Of a DNA stretch of 64,000 bases, positions 4,168-63,049 are shown in pieces; the first letter of the stretch is position 1; each line of letters begins with the position of its first letter. The DNA is from Escherichia phage UoN_LG358_1. The DNA is taken from sequence record OK570374; one strand, given 5' to 3'. The position numbers and the translations under genes were made by a program. Under the pieces are notes generated by a model. That model was not told the DNA's origin. It was given only the letters and a program-made list of their open reading frames with translations, and searched no databases.

Positions 4168-5721
4168 TCATACTAAGTCTTTTACTTTTTTCCAGACGCC
4201 ATCAATAAAAATTTCGTCATTGATATTAACTACAATATCTTCACCGGCAACATTTACAGTATACCATTGTTCGCCGGCTTCAACTTCCGTGAATGGGTCT
4301 TCACCAATGACTAACCCAGTAATTGCACAAATATCAAAGATTTCTTTGTTTTTCAAAGCATCACCTGCAGACATTCCCCAGGTGTTCATCACTTTACCAC
4401 GTAATGGATAACCGCCATGAAGGGCACGGTCACGAGTATTAATTAGATAACCAATAGCAGAATCACCTTCTGTTAAAAACAAAGTTGTTTCTACTTTATC
4501 ATTACCATATTCGCCAGCTTTGATGTGTTTATGAACTTTAGCTTTGGCCGCCTTTTTCGCTGCTTTGGTTTCTGCTGCTTTCTCTGCCGCTAGTTTACGT
4601 GCTAATGCAGCTTCAATAATCGGCATTAAAATAGCATCAGATTTCATAATCTGATTAGAAATTTTCTTTGCATCGAGATTTAAGTGAGATTTAATTTCGC
4701 CCCATGGACTTGTAAGACGCTCTTTGGTTTGCGAGTCAAAGCGCAAGTTACTCATATCTCGAATAAACATCAACACAGTAAAACACTCTTTAATACGAGC
4801 TTTGTTTACTTCAATTTTGTGTTTACGTTTAATAGCCGGAATTAATTCATTAGCAATTTCGTCAATAACATAATCAATATGCGAACCGCCATTCTTTGTA
4901 TGAATGTTGTTAACATAAGTCATTTGACGAAAACCATCTGGAGAATTACCTATAGCCAAAGAATAATTTTCTTCATCAATAATGATAGCATTTTTATCAT
5001 ACTGCTTAGAATATTTTTTGAAATTACTATCAACTTTTTTATTGTTAAATTTAAATTCAATTTTTGGATAAACGACTGCCAATGTCTGTAAACGGTCCAA
5101 CATAATATCAAAATAAACATCATCAAAATTGTTCATTTCGAAATGGCTAAAATCTGGAATAAATTCTACCTTAGTTCCTTTATAAGAGGATTTTTTGGAT
5201 TTCCAAGAAACATTGTCAGAATTATTGCTACAAGAAACTGTTAATTCATTTTCTCCATCAGATGTTGTACCTTTAAACATAACAGAGAAAATATTAGTCA
5301 ATGAAGAACCAACACCGTTTTGCCCGCCAGTTTTACGCTCTTCATCAGCTCCAAAGTTTCCGCCTGCCTTAGTTTTCGTCCATGCTGCTACTGGACCAGG
5401 AATTTCTTCACCTTCAGGAGTAGTAACCATAGCCTGTGGAATTCCACGGCCATTATCTTCTACGGTCACTTTGCTTGTGGAAGAATCGATATTGACTGAA
5501 ATTTTATTAGCAAATTTAAAACTTGTACGGATAGCTTCATCAACAGAGTTATCGATAATTTCATCAATAAGTTTGAGAACGCCAGCTACGTATTGTACCC
5601 GCTTAAATTCGCCAAAAACAAAACGCTCATGAAATTCGTTAGATACACTTCCGATGTACATTCCAGGACGCTTAAGAACGTGTTCCTTGTCAGAGAGCAT
5701 TTGAATTTTATTTTCAATCAT
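4168..5721 (-). CDS. 39: DNA topoisomerase II large subunit gp39 (GyrB-like ATPase)
   Basis: 517 aa; MIENKIQMLSDKEHVLKRPGMYIGS... GHKL/TOPRIM motifs; length matches T4 gp39. Confidence 0.9.
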   Translation of the reverse strand: MIENKIQMLSDKEHVLKRPGMYIGSVSNEFHERFVFGEFKRVQYVAGVLKLIDEIIDNSVDEAIRTSFKFANKISVNIDSSTSKVTVEDNGRGIPQAMVTTPEGEEIPGPVAAWTKTKAGGNFGADEERKTGGQNGVGSSLTNIFSVMFKGTTSDGENELTVSCSNNSDNVSWKSKKSSYKGTKVEFIPDFSHFEMNNFDDVYFDIMLDRLQTLAVVYPKIEFKFNNKKVDSNFKKYSKQYDKNAIIIDEENYSLAIGNSPDGFRQMTYVNNIHTKNGGSHIDYVIDEIANELIPAIKRKHKIEVNKARIKECFTVLMFIRDMSNLRFDSQTKERLTSPWGEIKSHLNLDAKKISNQIMKSDAILMPIIEAALARKLAAEKAAETKAAKKAAKAKVHKHIKAGEYGNDKVETTLFLTEGDSAIGYLINTRDRALHGGYPLRGKVMNTWGMSAGDALKNKEIFDICAITGLVIGEDPFTEVEAGEQWYTVNVAGEDIVVNINDEIFIDGVWKKVKDLV

Positions 5722-13274: not shown

Positions 13275-13793
13275 TTAGTATCCTCGGTTTTGCCGCTCAA
13301 AGTTTTCAGCATTTTTCAGATAGTAAAGTTTAAAGATTTCTTCAGCCGACATGCCTAATCCTTGGAACATATTCAACACAAAGTGAAGAATATCAATCAT
13401 TTCAAATTTAATTTCTAATTGGTCTTTTGAAGACATTTCAGAAATAAGACGATTGCGTAATTCTGCATGTTGTGCTTTCCATGGTTTCCAGACAGAAGAA
13501 GCAGCCTTCTCGCCATTAGACATACCGCCCAGAGAAGTCAACAGCTCACGGAATTCGTCATCGATATAATCTTTCTGATTACGTAGCCAATCAACAACTT
13601 CACCAGCTTTAGCTAAGTCATCTGGATTGCGGTTATAGTCAGGTTTATCATTTGCTAGACGCACTTGCAATGATTTTTGCATGTCAAGCATCACTTGAAG
13701 CGGGTCAATACCAGCATTCACAGCATCATAATACGCATTTTCTGCTTTTTCATTGCCAGAGATGAGTTGAGAACATTCATTAAAATGGGCCAT
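13275..13793 (-). CDS. 56: dCTP pyrophosphatase gp56 (MazG-like)
   Basis: MAHFNECSQLISG...DPLQVMLDMQK... matches T4 gp56; start placed at ATG 13793. Confidence 0.8.
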   Translation of the reverse strand: MAHFNECSQLISGNEKAENAYYDAVNAGIDPLQVMLDMQKSLQVRLANDKPDYNRNPDDLAKAGEVVDWLRNQKDYIDDEFRELLTSLGGMSNGEKAASSVWKPWKAQHAELRNRLISEMSSKDQLEIKFEMIDILHFVLNMFQGLGMSAEEIFKLYYLKNAENFERQNRGY

Positions 13794-20258: not shown

Positions 20259-21335
20259 TTACAGGTCAATAGCCTTGCGGAACTCTTCTTGCCAAATTGG
20301 TTTTTCATCAAGATATTTTTGAAGAATTTTGTGCTGATATTTCAAAGTTTCAACACGGAACTCTTCATCTTCTTTAATCTTGTTGATTTTATCTACTAAT
20401 TCTTGACGATTACTCACATAAAAGAAATCATTACCTTCCATGATATTCATGTCAGGGTCAAACGTGCTATCGAAGAATGCCACTGCAGTAGATGCTAGAG
20501 CTTCCCATACACGAGGAGTGATTTGGTTGTTATCGTAGGTTTTATCACCTAATACAATAGTAGCATACGCGGTTGAGTTGCGTTGAACCATTTCACGAGA
20601 GTCTACTTTACCGGGGAATACCGGCGGAGTCGTCCAAGGAAATTCTGGGTTCTTGAACTGTTCTGCTTTCACTGAACCAAAGAATTCAACATCCAATCCA
20701 GTATCAAATAGGTATTCAACCATTTTAGCTTCACGGTTACCAGAACGGAAAGTGCCGCCATAAATCAGGTCTCGCATTTTGATGCCATCTGCGGCAATCT
20801 TAAAGACACTATGATACATTTTATGACGGTCCAAAGCAAAATGAACGAATTCTAGTTTATCGGATAAACATCCAACTAAACGATCAGAATGAATTTTCTT
20901 GCATTGCTCTAGATTTCTTCCTTGAGATACAATACGCATTGGAGATGTTACAATGAATTGTTCTTCTTTATATTTACTGGACCATTTCTTTTTAGACATC
21001 CTTCGCCAAGCTTGCTCAAACGGAAGACGAATATCGGTGAACAAATAATAAATTTTTGATTTATACTTATTCATGAACATATAAGCTTCTTTGTTCATCT
21101 TATTTTCTTCGCCGCCATAGAAGTTCAGAGCAGCATTAACGACCAATAAGCGGTCATACACATTCGGGTCTTTTACTGAATCGAAAGAAATTCCATACTG
21201 TGTATTTTTCATTGAAATAAGGTCAACATCAAGACCCATATCTTTTAAACATTCGGACAAATAAATTGTTTCTGAAGCAGGGGTTGTTTTAAACCCCTGG
21301 ATGTTATTGCCCATATTAATAATAGCAATTTTCAT
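20259..21335 (-). CDS. bgt: DNA beta-glucosyltransferase
   Basis: 358 aa; MKIAIINMGNNI...YKSKIYYLFTDIRLPF...SIIWN... strong match to T4 beta-gt. Confidence 0.8.
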   Translation of the reverse strand: MKIAIINMGNNIQGFKTTPASETIYLSECLKDMGLDVDLISMKNTQYGISFDSVKDPNVYDRLLVVNAALNFYGGEENKMNKEAYMFMNKYKSKIYYLFTDIRLPFEQAWRRMSKKKWSSKYKEEQFIVTSPMRIVSQGRNLEQCKKIHSDRLVGCLSDKLEFVHFALDRHKMYHSVFKIAADGIKMRDLIYGGTFRSGNREAKMVEYLFDTGLDVEFFGSVKAEQFKNPEFPWTTPPVFPGKVDSREMVQRNSTAYATIVLGDKTYDNNQITPRVWEALASTAVAFFDSTFDPDMNIMEGNDFFYVSNRQELVDKINKIKEDEEFRVETLKYQHKILQKYLDEKPIWQEEFRKAIDL

Positions 21336-22168
21336 AGTGTCGGTTCAATCTCGCTAAATTTATGAAAAGCATCTGACTTCTGCTTTTTAGCAACACACAT
21401 ACGAAGTACTTTCAAAGGTTCATCAGTACCAAACATAGTTTTGGTTGGGTCACCTTCTGATTTCCACCGAGCTTGAGTTGGGAAGTCAGCATGAATTTTT
21501 TCCAGCGCTCTGTTCTGTTTAGCAGCATTACGCATAGATGATACACCGCCTGGAGCTTGTCCTTTACCTGATTTAACGAGATATTTAAAAATCGCCAAAT
21601 GAGGATAACCCATATTAATGAGTTTAAGAAACGCGTATGTATCTTCGGATAGGTCTACTATACCATATCCAATGTCATCGGCAGAAAGTTTGCTTAAATC
21701 ATAAAAAGTATTTGTAAACCCGTAAGAGTTCTCACGGAAATGACCCCATTTAGAGTCAATCTTGAATATTGGCAAGCGAGCGTGACCATGATAAAAGCCG
21801 CAGTCCATCGCTGTTTCAACATAAAGACAAAGATTATTAAATTCATCCCAGGTCATTCCAACATCATGGAGAATGCGCCGGTCATCTTTTTCGCGAATTT
21901 CCGTTGTATGAATAGTAGTATCATCATCCAACATCCAAATTCGTTGTCCTTGATACATTTCGGTGATTAAACGACGAGTACCAGCAATCCCATTTACATC
22001 ATCCGGGATAGTTACTATTTTAGCAATTGTGCTATATCGAGTTTCGTATTCTTCTTTTTGAGACTCGCGAACTACAAGATGAGCGACATAACCTTCAGGG
22101 AACATGTCTAGGGCAGTAACTGCCCCGGCACGATTATAACTTGGAATTACAAATTGAATCATTTCCAA
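21332..22168 (-). CDS. putative GT-A-fold glycosyltransferase (second DNA sugar-transferase candidate)
   Basis: 278 aa; N-terminal FVIPSYNRAG and DxD-like WMLDDDTT motifs; between beta-gt and gene 42. Confidence 0.5.
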   Translation of the reverse strand: MEMIQFVIPSYNRAGAVTALDMFPEGYVAHLVVRESQKEEYETRYSTIAKIVTIPDDVNGIAGTRRLITEMYQGQRIWMLDDDTTIHTTEIREKDDRRILHDVGMTWDEFNNLCLYVETAMDCGFYHGHARLPIFKIDSKWGHFRENSYGFTNTFYDLSKLSADDIGYGIVDLSEDTYAFLKLINMGYPHLAIFKYLVKSGKGQAPGGVSSMRNAAKQNRALEKIHADFPTQARWKSEGDPTKTMFGTDEPLKVLRMCVAKKQKSDAFHKFSEIEPTL

Positions 22169-22896
22169 TAACCTTTGTAATCTTTCTTTGGTATATGAGT
22201 TTCACCAGTGTGATAAAAATGGTCAACTAGATAAAATTGATTTTCATATACATGGAGGCTTCCGGCGTTCCAAATAATGTCACCAACTACATATTTTTTA
22301 TCGCGACCGCAGTTAAGTGTCTGTACTAATAATTCTAATACATGTTTTTGCCAAGCATAGTCATTACGATAACCTGCCCAGCAATCGTTGCTTCTCATAC
22401 TCACAACAGCATGAACTTGCTCATCGCGAATTAAGTATTGAACCGTGTTTGTACACATGAAATCACTCATACCGTCACGGTTATAATCAGTCTGCATACT
22501 TGGACGAGTATAAATCATAATTCCACGGCGAGAATCTGGATTGACACTCAGTTCAGCCGCACAACTTGCAAATTGGCTATAATTATCTTTATTCCAAATC
22601 GCCCATCCGTAGTTTGAGTTAATCTCGCCGTTTTTGGATGAAATCTGGTCCCAAATTGCTGGAGTTTTTCCTGGAATGTCTTTAACGAATAAACTTTGAG
22701 ACTTATACCATTCTAATTCGCGGGCTACATACTCATCATTAACTGAACCAAAAATAAGTTCTTCATCTGCAACAAAAGACGCGCCGATAATTTCAATAGT
22801 TTTTACGCCAGTTTTGTCAATAACAAACTCTTCATTTTCGAGAGCTACAGCAAATTCCTGACGAATGTCTTGTACTGTCAAAGGTGTGATAATCAT
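22159..22896 (-). CDS. 42: dCMP hydroxymethylase gp42
   Basis: 245 aa; DKTGVKTIEIIGASFVADE...PDSRRGIMIYTRPSMQ...MCTNTVQYLIRD matches T4 gp42. Confidence 0.9.
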   Translation of the reverse strand: MIITPLTVQDIRQEFAVALENEEFVIDKTGVKTIEIIGASFVADEELIFGSVNDEYVARELEWYKSQSLFVKDIPGKTPAIWDQISSKNGEINSNYGWAIWNKDNYSQFASCAAELSVNPDSRRGIMIYTRPSMQTDYNRDGMSDFMCTNTVQYLIRDEQVHAVVSMRSNDCWAGYRNDYAWQKHVLELLVQTLNCGRDKKYVVGDIIWNAGSLHVYENQFYLVDHFYHTGETHIPKKDYKGYWK

Positions 22897-58823: not shown

Positions 58824-59366
58824 TTATTGCATTCCTATCACAAAAAATTGCGGTCGCGCAGTTTGATTGTTTTTATAACAATCAACTCGACAACAATACT
58901 GCATGGTTTCCATATGAACATCGTAAAGCTTATCCATATCAGGAGCTTTTACAGGTTCATCAATTATATACAAGATTCTTGAAAGCGATAGACCTCGGAA
59001 TTTGTATCCTTTATTGCCTATAAAACTACGCACAGAATCAGTGAACAAGCGAAATCGGATATCATCATTAGAATAACGCGAAAATTCCTTTTTAATGTGA
59101 TTTGCGGAAAGTTCAGCGTATGCTGATTTATTGGATAAAACAATAACCGTTCCACCATCATACAGCCAATTGGCGGCGAAGTTAGTTACAGCGATTGATT
59201 TACCAGATTGGCGCCCACCGTCTAGTCGAAGAGTGCAATATTCTTTAAGCAGGGTTTCTAATGGCGGAACCCAGCCATTTTTGCAAATTTCATCTACTCT
59301 AGCATCAGAATGATGTGTAAAAGCATTCATCAGGGATAGATATGGTGCAGTTAAAAATGTTCTCAT
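58824..59366 (-). CDS. hypothetical P-loop protein
   Basis: 180 aa; DGGRQSGKS Walker-A-like and LYIIDEP Walker-B-like. Confidence 0.4.
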   Translation of the reverse strand: MRTFLTAPYLSLMNAFTHHSDARVDEICKNGWVPPLETLLKEYCTLRLDGGRQSGKSIAVTNFAANWLYDGGTVIVLSNKSAYAELSANHIKKEFSRYSNDDIRFRLFTDSVRSFIGNKGYKFRGLSLSRILYIIDEPVKAPDMDKLYDVHMETMQYCCRVDCYKNNQTARPQFFVIGMQ

Positions 59367-59542
59367 TTGTTTCTCTTAAGTTTGTGGGCCGTTCCGTGGC
59401 ACATGATTGGTCCTTCTACCGCTATGTAAACCCATTACCGCACTTGGGCTCGACCTTATTACAGGTTGGAAAAGGTTCATCACTCAGAGGACACGACGTT
59501 CATGAGGAGAGGCTGCGTTACCCTTTATTAGGCAGGAAATGT

Positions 59543-59806
59543 TTAAGCTTTACCGCCTGAAACAATTCCAAAATTATCAAAATCGTCTTCAATGTCAGAA
59601 GGGTCTACTTTTTTACCAGGTACAACATAAGCAATTTCGCGGCGTTTAGCATGAGTAACAATTTCTTTGCCTAAACCATTAAAGAAAGAATAGCCATTTC
59701 GTTTTAGAGACCCAAAGTCTTCTGCGTCACCAGTAAATGCACGCACTTTAAATGCGCCTTTTGGAGCTTTTACTGACTCATTAATAAATTCTTCGTAAGT
59801 TTTCAT
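59543..59806 (-). CDS. internal (capsid-injected) protein with capsid-targeting sequence
   Basis: 87 aa; N-terminal MKTYEEFINES matches the T4 IP capsid-targeting consensus. Confidence 0.55.
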   Translation of the reverse strand: MKTYEEFINESVKAPKGAFKVRAFTGDAEDFGSLKRNGYSFFNGLGKEIVTHAKRREIAYVVPGKKVDPSDIEDDFDNFGIVSGGKA

Positions 59807-59837
59807 TTAATTTCCTTTATGAACCAAATATTAGTAA

Positions 59838-59881
59838 TGTTCTGTAGAATAATTATAACATCATCTACAGAACATGTAAAC
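59838..59881 (-). promoter_or_regulatory. early promoter with -10 (TATAAT) in the loop of an 11-bp perfect hairpin
   Basis: Inverted repeat TGTTCTGTAGA/TCTACAGAACA with 15-nt loop; GTAAAC immediately adjacent. Confidence 0.4.
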
Positions 59882-59883
59882 AT

Positions 59884-60360
59884 TTATTTGATTGATTTAA
59901 CGTATCGAGTAACACCTTTGTCGTTAACAAACGCAATCTTACCGCGGCTGTTATACATCGTTACAGTACGCTGATAGCCATAAGTCTGTTTACCTGCCTG
60001 ATAACCAATCAAAGCGAAGTTATCTTCACCAGGCTTGTTCAGTTTAGCTTTGATACGTTCATGACCATAAGCCATTAAACTTCTCTGGTCGCCTGTGTTC
60101 AATGCTTTACGAACACTTTCATCGTCGACGGATGAAACAAAATCCTCAAATGAGCTGAACTTGGCGTGGCTCTTGTTGTAAAGTTTGCCTTCGACTACAT
60201 AGTTATAGCCCATAACATCCATATCAACTTCAGTACCATCTTCAAGTACTACAGTGATTTTCTGACCTTTCTTGTATTTCAGCAGACCATCAGTAGATTC
60301 GTTGATGATAATCTGAGAAATGACGCGGGCTTCATTGATAAAATCTTCATAAGTTTTCAT
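59884..60360 (-). CDS. internal protein with capsid-targeting sequence
   Basis: Start at ATG 60360: MKTYEDFINEA... Confidence 0.55.
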   Translation of the reverse strand: MKTYEDFINEARVISQIIINESTDGLLKYKKGQKITVVLEDGTEVDMDVMGYNYVVEGKLYNKSHAKFSSFEDFVSSVDDESVRKALNTGDQRSLMAYGHERIKAKLNKPGEDNFALIGYQAGKQTYGYQRTVTMYNSRGKIAFVNDKGVTRYVKSIK

Positions 60361-60404
60361 GTATAATTCCATTGCTGATTGACGTTAATTATTATAACTA
60401 ATTT

Positions 60405-60824
60405 TTAATTAGCATAAACGGCTTTACCGTAATATTTGTACCAGCCTAGTTTTTGAGAAATTTTCTCATCCAGACGTTGTTGACTAATTTGAATAGACCA
60501 AATAGATGGATGGTAATCATTTTTCCATTCGTTTGGAATATCATTTAAATCTTGAATTGACGTATCTTTTATATTAAATCCTCGTTTTAAACATTCGGCA
60601 ATAATTTCTTTATGTCGGTTTTTGAGAAATAAAAGTTTATCATAAAAGAACGTGACATGGCCCGACCCAAGAACAAAAGTAGAACTGATTTTAAAATCCG
60701 AAGGACGTTTGCCGGCCTTAACGTGCTTACGTACTGCTCCAAAAACACGAGGAAGTTCGCGGTACTCGGCAATTAAATGCTGATCAGCAAGTTCAGATAC
60801 TAAAGTCAAATTTATACGAGTCAT
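60405..60824 (-). CDS. denV: endonuclease V (pyrimidine-dimer DNA glycosylase)
   Basis: [35 protein letters not shown]... near-identical to T4 DenV; start at ATG 60824. Confidence 0.85.
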
Positions 60825-60830
60825 ACGTTT

Positions 60831-60869
60831 CTCCTGTAGATGTTGAATATTATAAATCATCTACAGGAG
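60831..60869 (-). promoter_or_regulatory. 12-bp perfect hairpin sequestering the denV Shine-Dalgarno, with -10-like TATAAT in the loop
   Basis: CTCCTGTAGATG / CATCTACAGGAG inverted repeat; AGGAG of the 3' arm lies 6 nt upstream of the denV ATG. Confidence 0.5.
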
Positions 60870-60878
60870 AAGTAAATT

Positions 60879-61211
60879 TTATTTAAAAGCAGCTTTCAAT
60901 TCTTTGAATGCTTTAGAACTCAAAGTAAAAGATTCAGCGCCGATGCGAAAGAATGCGCTGTCATTATCTACAGCTACACCAATTTGTGTAGAACCCTCAG
61001 AGCCCTTCCACTTACCACCGTCGCGAAGGACTTTGACAATAGCTGTGGTTTGTAGTTTAGATGTCTGAAAACGTTCATTTCCAATTTGGAAGTAAACCCC
61101 ATCTTTATCAGTTACTAAAGCGAATTTAGTCGACCCTTCTGTGTCTTTAATAGTAGCTTCAGCGATCTGAGACAATAATGCCTCAGTAATAAATTCATCA
61201 TATGTTTTCAT
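60879..61211 (-). CDS. internal protein with capsid-targeting sequence
   Basis: Start at ATG 61211: [15 protein letters not shown]...; two internally similar halves. Confidence 0.55.
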
Positions 61212-61698
61212 ATGCTTTCCAAGTTCCTGTTTCAAAAGTTTTAATAACGCGGCGTGCGCGATTAGTTGTTTGTCTGTACCATTTAGATTGAGCTAAATTT
61301 ACAGCAGCTCTATCCCAATCTTTAGCTTTTAATAAAGCCATAGAATTTTTAAAACCCGCTACACCAGCTACACCCATTTGAAAAACCATGTTAATCAGAG
61401 CAGCCAGACGAGGTTCATCACCAATAAAAGAATTATATACAGGTTTTAATGTAGCATTTTTAAGAATTCCAGAAACTGCAGTTTCAACATCATTCTTGAA
61501 AATAAGTTCAGCTTCTGATTGAGTAATTTTGCCAGACGTATTACGGCCAACAAGACGGTCCAACTCACTGATAGCTACGGATTTATTAGGGTTTTTAGTC
61601 AAAAGATGACCTATACCGACGGTCCAAAAACCTTCGGTATCTTTATAAATTTCAAGTTTTAAACCTTCGTCGATGCGAAGCATGTCAAAAATGTTCAT
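61198..61698 (-). CDS. e: endolysin (T4 lysozyme)
   Basis: 166 aa; [35 protein letters not shown]... near-identical to T4 lysozyme. Confidence 0.9.
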
Positions 61699-61725
61699 AA
61701 TACCTCCCCTTTAATAGAGGTATTT
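61699..61725 (-). promoter_or_regulatory. hairpin sequestering the lysozyme SD, with late-promoter-like TAATAAATA just upstream
   Basis: AUACCUC...GAGGUAU stem places GGAGGU in the 3' arm immediately before the e ATG, as described for T4 gene e. Confidence 0.5.
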
Positions 61726-61726
61726 A

Positions 61727-62023
61727 TTAATCCCAACTTTTGACAAAAAGGTCTGTCATGAATTCTTCTAGTCGGGTTTCTACAGACGAGGAAACGTCAG
61801 ATGATGTAGAAACTAGATAACCACAGATAGGCTTAAAACTTTCTAAATTACTTTCCATTTCATATTTAATTTGCTCTTCGGACTCATTATCACCAAATGA
61901 ATAGAGATAATTATATCCATTTTTTGAATTTACATAAATTGCTACACTCATTATACCGTCCAAATTATATAGTACGTCCTTCGACGATTTTAGCGAAAGA
62001 CCAATTTTTAGTAATAAACTCAA
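61727..62023 (-). CDS. hypothetical protein
   Basis: 98-aa ORF in track (start may be internal). Confidence 0.35.
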   Translation of the reverse strand: MSLLLKIGLSLKSSKDVLYNLDGIMSVAIYVNSKNGYNYLYSFGDNESEEQIKYEMESNLESFKPICGYLVSTSSDVSSSVETRLEEFMTDLFVKSWD

Positions 62024-62165
62024 TGATTAAATTCAATTCTTTAGCTTCGACAATATCAGTTACGTGGTTTTCGTGATTTCCAGTATTCAGAACAGCACGG
62101 AAACGATCGAATTTACCAAAATCGTTAGTTACTTTATCGATAGTTACAGTGTTAAATTTAGCCAT
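61965..62165 (-). CDS. hypothetical small protein
   Basis: Start at ATG 62165; MAKFNTVTIDKV...; leader and promoter near-identical to those of the gene starting at 49676. Confidence 0.4.
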   Translation of the reverse strand: MAKFNTVTIDKVTNDFGKFDRFRAVLNTGNHENHVTDIVEAKELNLIIEFITKNWSFAKIVEGRTI

Positions 62166-62219
62166 GATTTTATTCTCCAAGTTAGTTTTTGTTTTACCAT
62201 TTATTTGGTATGAAGTAAT

Positions 62220-62341
62220 AATAACACATCCGTCCATGGATGTAAACGGTTGAAGTAAAAATTTTTGAATTCACCAGAACGGTTGAGAGATTGGATACAG
62301 AAAGGATAATAGATTATAAATCTATACAAATAAAAATGCCC
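62220..62341 (-). repeat. 122-bp tandem direct repeat, copy 1 (contains an early promoter)
   Basis: Identical to 62342..62463 by direct comparison. Confidence 0.85.
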
Positions 62342-62463
62342 AATAACACATCCGTCCATGGATGTAAACGGTTGAAGTAAAAATTTTTGAATTCACCAGA
62401 ACGGTTGAGAGATTGGATACAGAAAGGATAATAGATTATAAATCTATACAAATAAAAATGCCC
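62342..62463 (-). repeat. 122-bp tandem direct repeat, copy 2 (contains an early promoter)
   Basis: Identical to 62220..62341. Confidence 0.85.
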
Positions 62464-62480
62464 TAGAGTTAAACTAGGGC
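62452..62480 (-). terminator. putative intrinsic terminator
   Basis: GCCCTAG-AGTTAAA-CTAGGGC hairpin followed by AUUUUUAUUU in the minus orientation. Confidence 0.5.
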
Positions 62481-62488
62481 GTGAGAGA

Positions 62489-63049
62489 TTAAATCTTATA
62501 GAACCTGAACGGATTTATATGGAAAGCAAGCATTGCTCTGGGTATCGGACGGGATAATAAGCTTTTAAGTTTCCACCCACAATAAACTCGTAGGTAAAAT
62601 TGAATTTTTCCAATTCTTAGATAAGGAACAGCAGCAAAAACTCCCCAAGCGTCATCGTTCCACATAAACAGCCATCCATGATGAGCTTTATCTGGAGAAC
62701 CCGATTCTACATTAGGGTTTCCACGATAATGAAACTCAGATGTAGCGGGGCGGCCAAGGACATAATATGCAAAGTTATAAGCTTTATTTCGCCACAGCCA
62801 TGCTACGCGTTGAAAGTATTTACCTAAAACTGGAATTTTACGAATTTTCGACCAGCGTTCAATATGTCCACGGTCTCCATCAATAGGATTGTCGTATGTT
62901 TCCATCCAACGGAATCCTTTAGGTAAGTGACCAGTCTTTTCAGAATAGAATGGAACAATAAATGGAGTCAATACAACAGCTAAAACCATAGAAATGAAAT
63001 CTAGTGGAACAAGAAAAATCCATGAAGCGTATTTTAGAAATTTAGTCAT
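62489..63049 (-). CDS. hypothetical membrane protein
   Basis: 186 aa; N-terminal hydrophobic segment IFLVPLDFISMVLAVVLTPFIV. Confidence 0.45.
   Translation of the reverse strand: MTKFLKYASWIFLVPLDFISMVLAVVLTPFIVPFYSEKTGHLPKGFRWMETYDNPIDGDRGHIERWSKIRKIPVLGKYFQRVAWLWRNKAYNFAYYVLGRPATSEFHYRGNPNVESGSPDKAHHGWLFMWNDDAWGVFAAVPYLRIGKIQFYLRVYCGWKLKSLLSRPIPRAMLAFHINPFRFYKI

Follow-up and report, generated by a model that had tools for sequence, protein, structure and literature searches.

Three leader-bearing genes around denV in Escherichia phage UoN_LG358_1: probable internal-protein genes in a cassette array

The best described relatives of the genes discussed here are the internal proteins (IPs) of phage T4, which carry an N-terminal leader, or capsid-targeting sequence, that reads MKTYQEFIAE. 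In T4 IPIII the first ten residues are sufficient to package foreign proteins; residues 4 and 7 are the main targeting determinants, and residues 8 and 10 belong to an L/I-x-E motif that is cut by the prohead protease, gene product 21 (gp21) (review PMC9026906). Work by Silas et al. (Nat Commun 2025, PMC12373910) determined that each of the proteins T4 Ip1, Ip2 and Ip3 blocks its own type IV restriction enzyme of the GmrSD family, none of them protecting against the enzyme of another. IP loci are hypervariable in T4-type phages (Repoila et al. 1994, as cited in PMC12373910), and shuffling in these phages is also mediated by promoter-early stem-loops (PeSLs), for which the T4-type consensus is TTTACW-N17-TAYWAT (Arbiol et al. 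2010, PMC2839356; Comeau et al. 2014, PMC4122927). The subject of this analysis is a stretch of 64,000 nucleotides (nt) from Escherichia phage UoN_LG358_1 (sequence record OK570374), the whole of which is called the window below. It comes from a T-even-type phage of the genus Gelderlandvirus (S16-like) and holds three genes, IP-A, IP-B and IP-C, in the order e-IP-A-denV-IP-B-IP-C-vs.8, where T4 has e-ipIII-ipII-denV-vs.8. The best explanation of the three genes, and a highly probable one, is that they encode internal proteins that are packaged in the head and injected.

The leader is part of the evidence for this reading. An earlier note on this DNA had described, at 59543-61211, three open reading frames (ORFs) that flank denV, begin with the T-even capsid-targeting leader and have bodies unrelated to one another, and this description holds throughout. 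The coordinates are exact, since they are the stop codon of IP-C (59543) and the start codon of IP-A (61211), and both the ORF coordinates and a six-frame motif scan confirm the three leader-bearing ORFs, with denV placed between IP-A and IP-B. The scan covered all 64 kb with the motifs MKT[YF]..[FLY][ILV] and M[KR][TS][YF]..[FLY][ILV].E and found the leader at only three sites, which are the starts of these ORFs; shuffled windows (n=100) gave means of 0.00 and 0.02 hits for the two patterns. IP-B starts with MKTYEDFINEA and IP-C with MKTYEEFINES, and the leader of IP-A ends in I-T-E followed by A. Tyr4, Phe7, Ile8 and Glu10 are present in all three proteins, as in T4, and the one to three substitutions relative to the T4 leader fall at none of these positions. 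These key positions are kept or conservatively replaced in all the homologues collected, even where their bodies are down to about 40-55% identity. Tyr4 and Phe7 are invariant in the alignment of the IP-A family, and the families of IP-C and of IP-B (the Ip4 family) occasionally have Phe at position 4 and Tyr at position 7. At the DNA level, the 30 nt that encode the leader are identical at 24-26 positions among the three genes and at 23-25 positions in comparison with T4 ipII and ipIII, and they were also detected as a three-copy direct repeat.

The predicted cleavage sites are I-T-E/A in IP-A, I-N-E/A in IP-B and I-N-E/S in IP-C. Cleavage there would leave mature proteins of 100, 148 and 77 amino acids (aa) with isoelectric points (pI) of 8.98, 9.26 and 9.00, respectively; the pI values of T4 IPII and IPIII are 9.56 and 9.65. 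Second protease-type sites are found just downstream of the leader, IAE17/A in IP-A (residues 15-17) and INE21/S in IP-B, and the latter recurs throughout the Ip4 family in the conserved form [ILVM]-x-E-[SA]. The true mature N-termini of IP-A and IP-B may therefore sit further in.

The mature bodies were compared one against one by BLASTP after removal of the ten leader residues, both with each other and with T4 IPII and IPIII. No pair gave an E-value below 0.04, and this agrees with the unrelated bodies described in the earlier note. The positive control, T4 IPIII against IPIII of the Salmonella phage STP4-a, gave 5e-99. The window thus resembles T4 in the leader, the I-x-E motif, the location of the genes between e and vs.8 around denV, the small size and basic character of the proteins and the lack of similarity among their bodies. 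It differs from T4 in that the bodies have no detectable sequence similarity to IPII or IPIII, that e and the first IP gene share 14 nt, and that there is no IPIII orthologue, though the sister phage STP4-a has one.

All genes in the part of the window around 59543-61211 are on the minus strand, and their coordinates are collected in the table. In the direction of transcription the order is e, IP-A, a stem-loop cassette, denV, IP-B, a second cassette, IP-C, a GC-rich element and the vs.8 homologue. The mechanical ORF of IP-B opens four codons earlier than the start given, at 60372. The window is about 99-100% identical to STP4-a; over 59300-61750 the identity is 99.3%, or 99.96% once one indel is excluded. 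The RefSeq record of STP4-a already lists two of the three IP genes as coding for internal proteins. The cluster itself is a known T-even system; what is added here is the recognition of the IP-A family and the mapping of the cassette joints.

Table. Features of the e to vs.8 region of the window
Feature	Position	Strand	Basis
Lysozyme gene e	61698-61198	minus	ORF, profile match
IP-A, 110 aa	61211-60879	minus	ORF; phrog_3966, 1.3e-32
PeSL-like cassette upstream of denV	60876-60829	minus	inverted repeat
denV, endonuclease V (pyrimidine-dimer glycosylase)	60824-60405	minus	PF03013, 2.4e-15; phrog_1183, 1.6e-59
IP-B, 158 aa	60360-59884	minus	DUF7412 (PF24183), 1.9e-97; phrog_3155 'internal virion protein', 6.6e-91
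PeSL-like cassette upstream of IP-C	59880-59837	minus	inverted repeat; direct repeats common with the denV PeSL
IP-C, 87 aa	59806-59543	minus	phrog_2667 'internal head protein', 3.2e-21
GC-rich non-coding element, 165 nt	59540-59376	minus	conserved across phage records
vs.8 homologue, P-loop-like	59366-58824	minus	phrog_1488, 9.6e-78

IP-A belongs to a family that had escaped notice. In searches of Pfam and PHROGs its only profile match is the PHROGs family listed in the table, which is labelled 'unknown function'. The body without its leader was found by tblastn in 55 phage records, including members of Moonvirus, Kanagawavirus, Gaprivervirus and Winklervirus; within Gelderlandvirus these records place it only in STP4-a. 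The proteins are labelled 'hypothetical' throughout, except for one 'profilin', and none is labelled as an internal protein. When ten homologous clusters were aligned, all the homologues carried the leader. The location of the genes tells the same story. In Citrobacter phage Merlin the homologue overlaps e by 14 nt and is followed by denV, as in the window, and in VR7, PEi20 and CHI14 it lies between 57B and tRNA.4, beside genes annotated ip9, ip6 or ipI. The family is placed in one of the two classical IP loci in all five phages examined. Because the leader is always carried and the genes are positioned only in IP loci, the family is counted among the internal proteins; judged by leader and location, it is an IP family in all but name, unannotated as such until now.

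Mature IP-A contains a tandem duplication of a module of about 45 aa (internal repeat, hhalign 95.4%, E 1.7e-8). In the structural model the two beta-beta-beta-beta-alpha modules form one domain with a predicted Whirly/PUR-like fold; the confidence of the model is moderate (mean predicted local distance difference test score, pLDDT, 63.5). The Whirly/PUR/MRP1-MRP2 fold is known from beta4-alpha repeat proteins that bind single-stranded nucleic acids. IP-A differs from these in having no sequence-profile link to them, and Whirly and MRP subunits are larger than mature IP-A. The Whirly, PurA and SsgA Pfam profiles matched none of ten IP-A family members, and a PDB profile search with IP-A gave no match.

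IP-B and IP-C belong to families that have been recognized before. IP-B matches PF24183 with 324.3 bits against a cut-off of 27, and its residues 1-158 align with profile positions 1-158. It is a full-length member of the Ip4 family, named after the RB51 'Ip4', and nothing notable sets it apart. Homologues of this family occur in 470 phage records, including that of RB51; the proteins of S16, STML-198 and STP4-a are 100% identical to IP-B, and members from coliphages, Klebsiella phages and Serratia phages are 62-71% identical. No assigned function or solved structure was found for the family (DUF7412, phrog_3155). The model of IP-B (pLDDT 64.6) has weak matches to small SH3/Tudor-like beta-barrels. 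The IP-C family is found in 205 phage records and is already annotated 'internal head protein'. A profile search among 1.84 billion representatives added five more distant relatives of IP-C, all of them with a leader-like N-terminus. Long repeat proteins (FG-GAP-like and similar) also appeared in this search and were judged to be spurious low-complexity or repeat matches. For function, profile searches of Pfam, PHROGs and the PDB gave only 'internal protein', a DUF or nothing.

Another theme is the exchange of genes at this locus. In the S16 group, e runs straight into the Ip4 leader in the same e-overlap context, and the body of IP-A, the PeSL and denV are missing; this arrangement is the product expected from recombination between two leader-coding repeats. 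In CGG4-1 the IP-A slot is occupied by an unrelated leader-bearing protein of 86 aa (MKTFKEFISES...). The ORF for this protein (4554-4814 of the CGG4-1 stretch compared) is lysine/glutamate-rich and annotated 'hypothetical', and it is a candidate internal protein that has not been labelled as such. An additional gene of STP4-a, placed between IP-C and vs.8, encodes an orthologue of IPIII with 76% identity to the T4 protein. On either side of this gene stands an 81-bp direct repeat of the GC-rich element; the window has one copy of the element and no ipIII. These comparisons show that the locus behaves as a cassette array, in which IP genes have been gained, lost or swapped at repeated sequences. 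The sequences found at the joints are the 30 nt that encode the leader, the two promoter/stem-loop cassettes and the conserved GC-rich element.

How does this compare with the PeSL-mediated shuffling described for T4-type phages? Two cassettes fit the PeSL consensus, and small genes between repeats are inserted, deleted or replaced in close relatives. The difference lies in the boundaries, which for two of the three polymorphisms are not PeSLs but the leader-coding DNA (S16 compared with the window) and the 81-bp repeat of the GC-rich element (STP4-a compared with the window). The Mosigvirus APCEc01 has the order e-IP-denV-IP with a homologue of IP-C, and therefore IPs that flank denV are not peculiar to the phage of the window. 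In STP4-a two further leader-bearing ORFs were seen at the ipI-type locus beside 57B, at 1034-1621 of its positions 62500-70500, which corresponds to DNA outside the window. One encodes 97 aa (MKTYQEFINEA...) and is a distant paralogue of IP-C, and the other encodes 77 aa (MKSFKEFVNES...). With these two, the IP repertoire of the lineage that includes STP4-a and the phage of the window is at least five.

The expression signals differ among the genes. IP-A opens within e, with its ATG 14 nt before the end of that gene (...GCATATGAAAACATATGA), and the same 14-nt overlap is found in Merlin, CGG4-1 and KaAlpha. Upstream of e (61699-61735) there is a near-consensus late promoter, AATAAATA, at 61728-61721. 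A hairpin, ATACCTC...GAGGTAT, is found there as well, and in early transcripts of greater length it would make the Shine-Dalgarno sequence inaccessible. We take this layout of hairpin and late promoter to resemble the classical translational control of T4 gene e. The overlap with e and the late promoter upstream of e suggest that IP-A is probably made late, with its translation coupled to that of e.

The cassettes upstream of denV and IP-C are of another kind. The denV cassette contains TTTACT-16 nt-TATAAT. A 13-bp stem (TCTCCTGTAGATG / CATCTACAGGAGA) closes the loop in which the -10 element lies, and the 3' arm of this stem holds the denV Shine-Dalgarno sequence; T4 denV is preceded by the same stem-loop element. 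The IP-C cassette contains TTTACA-17 nt-TATAAT, an 11/12 match with an extended -10 TG, and its -10 element is enclosed by a perfect 12-bp stem (ATGTTCTGTAGA / TCTACAGAACAT). By sequence match both fit the definition of a PeSL, an intergenic sigma-70-type promoter with an overlapping or adjoining stem-loop in a hyperplastic region, and from this layout denV and IP-C are predicted to carry their own sigma-70-type early promoters. The start of denV deserves a comment. The protein begins MTRINLTLV, as in T4. The open frame of denV runs 12 codons further upstream to an ATG at 60860, inside the PeSL stem-loop, and the STP4-a gene STP4a_118 is annotated from this upstream ATG (151 aa). The start at 60824 (MTRINL) is favoured both by T4 DenV and by the Shine-Dalgarno sequence, which lies in the 3' arm of the stem.

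A pathway can be proposed for the three proteins, in which tethering, cleavage and injection are suggested by the conserved motifs and T4 genetics and the neutralization of defences by analogy. The ten-residue leader would tether each protein, through Tyr4 and Phe7, to the scaffolding core during prohead assembly. The homologue of the gp21 prohead protease would then cut after Glu10, and possibly again after Glu17 in IP-A and Glu21 in IP-B. The freed small basic protein (8-17 kDa, pI about 9) would stay with the packaged DNA and enter the cell with it. Each injected protein would most likely neutralize a different host defence before phage genes are expressed, and the likeliest targets would be variants of the GmrSD-family type IV enzymes that cut DNA with glucosylated hydroxymethylcytosine (hmC).

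The genes for DNA modification bear on this proposal. The window encodes homologues of the T4 dCMP hydroxymethylase gp42 (70% identity to T4) and beta-glucosyltransferase (50%), both in 20262-22896, and of the dCTPase gp56 (67%, 13278-13793), and in tblastn searches of the window no homologue of alpha-glucosyltransferase or Dam appeared. The three homologues imply that the phage DNA probably contains glucosyl-hmC and would be exposed to type IV enzymes; T4 and the phage of the window have in common the genes for hmC and its glucosylation. The earlier note had also cited T4 IPI as an anti-restriction factor and the hypervariability of IP loci. The one is in keeping with the inhibition of a GmrSD enzyme by Ip1 (PMC12373910), and the other with the finding that S16, CGG4-1 and STP4-a each differ at this locus and have flanks that are 90-99% identical. 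The idea of an anti-defence role is now stronger because T4 Ip1, Ip2 and Ip3 each inhibit a different GmrSD enzyme. Inhibition of GmrSD-type IV enzymes is the leading guess for the function of the three proteins and, by this analogy, a candidate function for each.

Several observations weigh against this account. Ten other ip genes were assayed against five further GmrSD systems and gave no inhibition (PMC12373910), and therefore some IPs may lack the anti-restriction role. In BLASTP searches with the leader removed, no IP body in the window resembles T4 Ip2 or Ip3. The fold predicted for IP-A hints at nucleic-acid binding and not at enzyme inhibition. The canonical late promoter TATAAATA is absent from 59300-62600, including the DNA in front of the IP genes. 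The homologues of the gp21 protease and the gp22 scaffold, which would read the leader, lie outside the 64-kb window, among the head genes, where their presence is expected for Tevenvirinae. Literature searches found no virion proteomics for the phage of the window, STP4-a, S16-like phages, Ip4 or homologues of the three families, the paper on STP4-a included, and packaging and cleavage therefore rest on the motif and the genomic location.

Could the shared 5' ends have nothing to do with packaging? One or more of the ORFs might encode a cytoplasmic early accessory protein, and the common 5' end might be a recombination scar or a conserved region for translation initiation. The leader-coding DNA is clearly a recombination joint in the comparison of S16 with the window, IP-A is never annotated as a virion protein in its 55 records, and early-type promoters precede denV and IP-C. 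Against this, the leader peptide (Y4, F7, [IL]8, E10) is conserved though the nucleotides and the bodies have diverged, the latter to 40-55% identity, and therefore selection on the peptide is indicated. The sufficiency of ten IPIII residues for packaging in T4 (PMC9026906) and the conservation of second protease-type sites just downstream of the leader argue in the same direction. Unpackaged proteins are judged very improbable.

A different role for packaged proteins also has to be considered, in which they would be mainly physical agents that neutralize charge, organize the condensed genome or protect DNA ends or single strands at ejection, IP-A through its Whirly/PUR-type surface. T4 does not need its IP genes on laboratory hosts, and a specific anti-restriction phenotype is now known for each of the three; the hypervariability and turnover of cassettes among near-identical phages suit an arms race better than housekeeping in packaging. 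The surface ascribed to IP-A depends on a model of moderate confidence, and SsgA-like proteins have the same fold and do not bind nucleic acids. A mainly physical role is judged unlikely for the set. About equally doubtful is a proposal for the IP-A family, that it is an unrecognized class of injected IP whose single Whirly/PUR-type domain would bind single-stranded DNA (ssDNA) or RNA and act on nucleic acid at entry, and would not inhibit GmrSD by protein contact. If this were true, IP-A could shield the incoming DNA end or single-stranded regions, or it could sequester or mimic an RNA or ssDNA defence signal. Packaged and injected internal proteins, with inhibition of type IV enzymes as the leading guess for what they do, remain the preferred reading of the three genes.

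Internal proteins are the only phage counter-defences that are in the cell at time zero, before phage transcription. A distinct type IV enzyme has been linked to each of the three T4 IPs since 2025, and about ten other named IPs are without targets. The known picture is unchanged by the present locus, which extends the catalogue of IPs and offers a three-gene test set from the broad-host-range Salmonella biocontrol lineage of S16 and STP4-a. Near-isogenic variants with missing or swapped cassettes exist in nature, and differences in host range could be mapped with them to single IPs. IP-A adds an unannotated IP family whose predicted fold suggests a different mode of action. The explicit recombination joints (leader DNA, PeSLs and the GC-rich element) explain the turnover of the repertoire.

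The GC-rich element between IP-C and vs.8 is the downstream boundary of the IP cluster. It is conserved in 1025 phage records from many Tevenvirinae genera. A core of 37-40 nt, ACCUGUAAUAAGGUCGAGCCnAAGnGCGGUAA, of which about 32 nt are invariant, is also present at 95-97% identity in genomes of Vequintavirus, which are unrelated, and in a set of 46-kb IMG/VR contigs. In both groups co-oriented tRNA genes follow downstream of the core, at a distance of roughly 200-600 nt. The element has no match in Rfam or in E. coli genomes and no unusual folding energy (z +1.15), and the pairs that RNAalifold obtained from the raw MAFFT alignment were all invariant. In an alignment of 27 sequences, two short helices that flank the invariant core show compensatory changes, for example GC/CG/AU at one pair and AU/UA/CG/UG at another. 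Their covariation is 0.244, compared with 0.073 in shuffles (0/500 reach 0.244) and at most 0.09 in slid controls; the helices were picked by eye in the very alignment that was used for counting, which favours them, and the covariation is for this reason only suggestive. The element may represent a structured RNA motif that is so far undescribed, and it may double as a recombination joint of the IP array. Resemblances to twister, hepatitis delta virus (HDV)-like and group II domain-5 RNAs were considered and dropped, as no model matched.

The possibility that the element encodes the N-terminus of vs.8 was considered and, as a general explanation, rejected. The T4 annotation of vs.8 (NC_000866; 219 aa, start MRDSRQPVIRSSPSAVMG...) runs through the element, at 2800-2913 of the T4 stretch compared, where the element occupies about 2800-2930. 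In the window the vs.8 frame is broken in the element and the homologue begins with MRTFLT at 59366, and most records annotate nothing there. The N-terminal extension of T4 vs.8 is probably an annotation artefact over a non-coding element.

An intergenic unit of 122 bp is perfectly duplicated in tandem at 62220-62463 of the window, with 100% identity between the copies at 62220-62341 and 62342-62463. A promoter-like site and hairpins occur in both, and STP4-a has one copy there.

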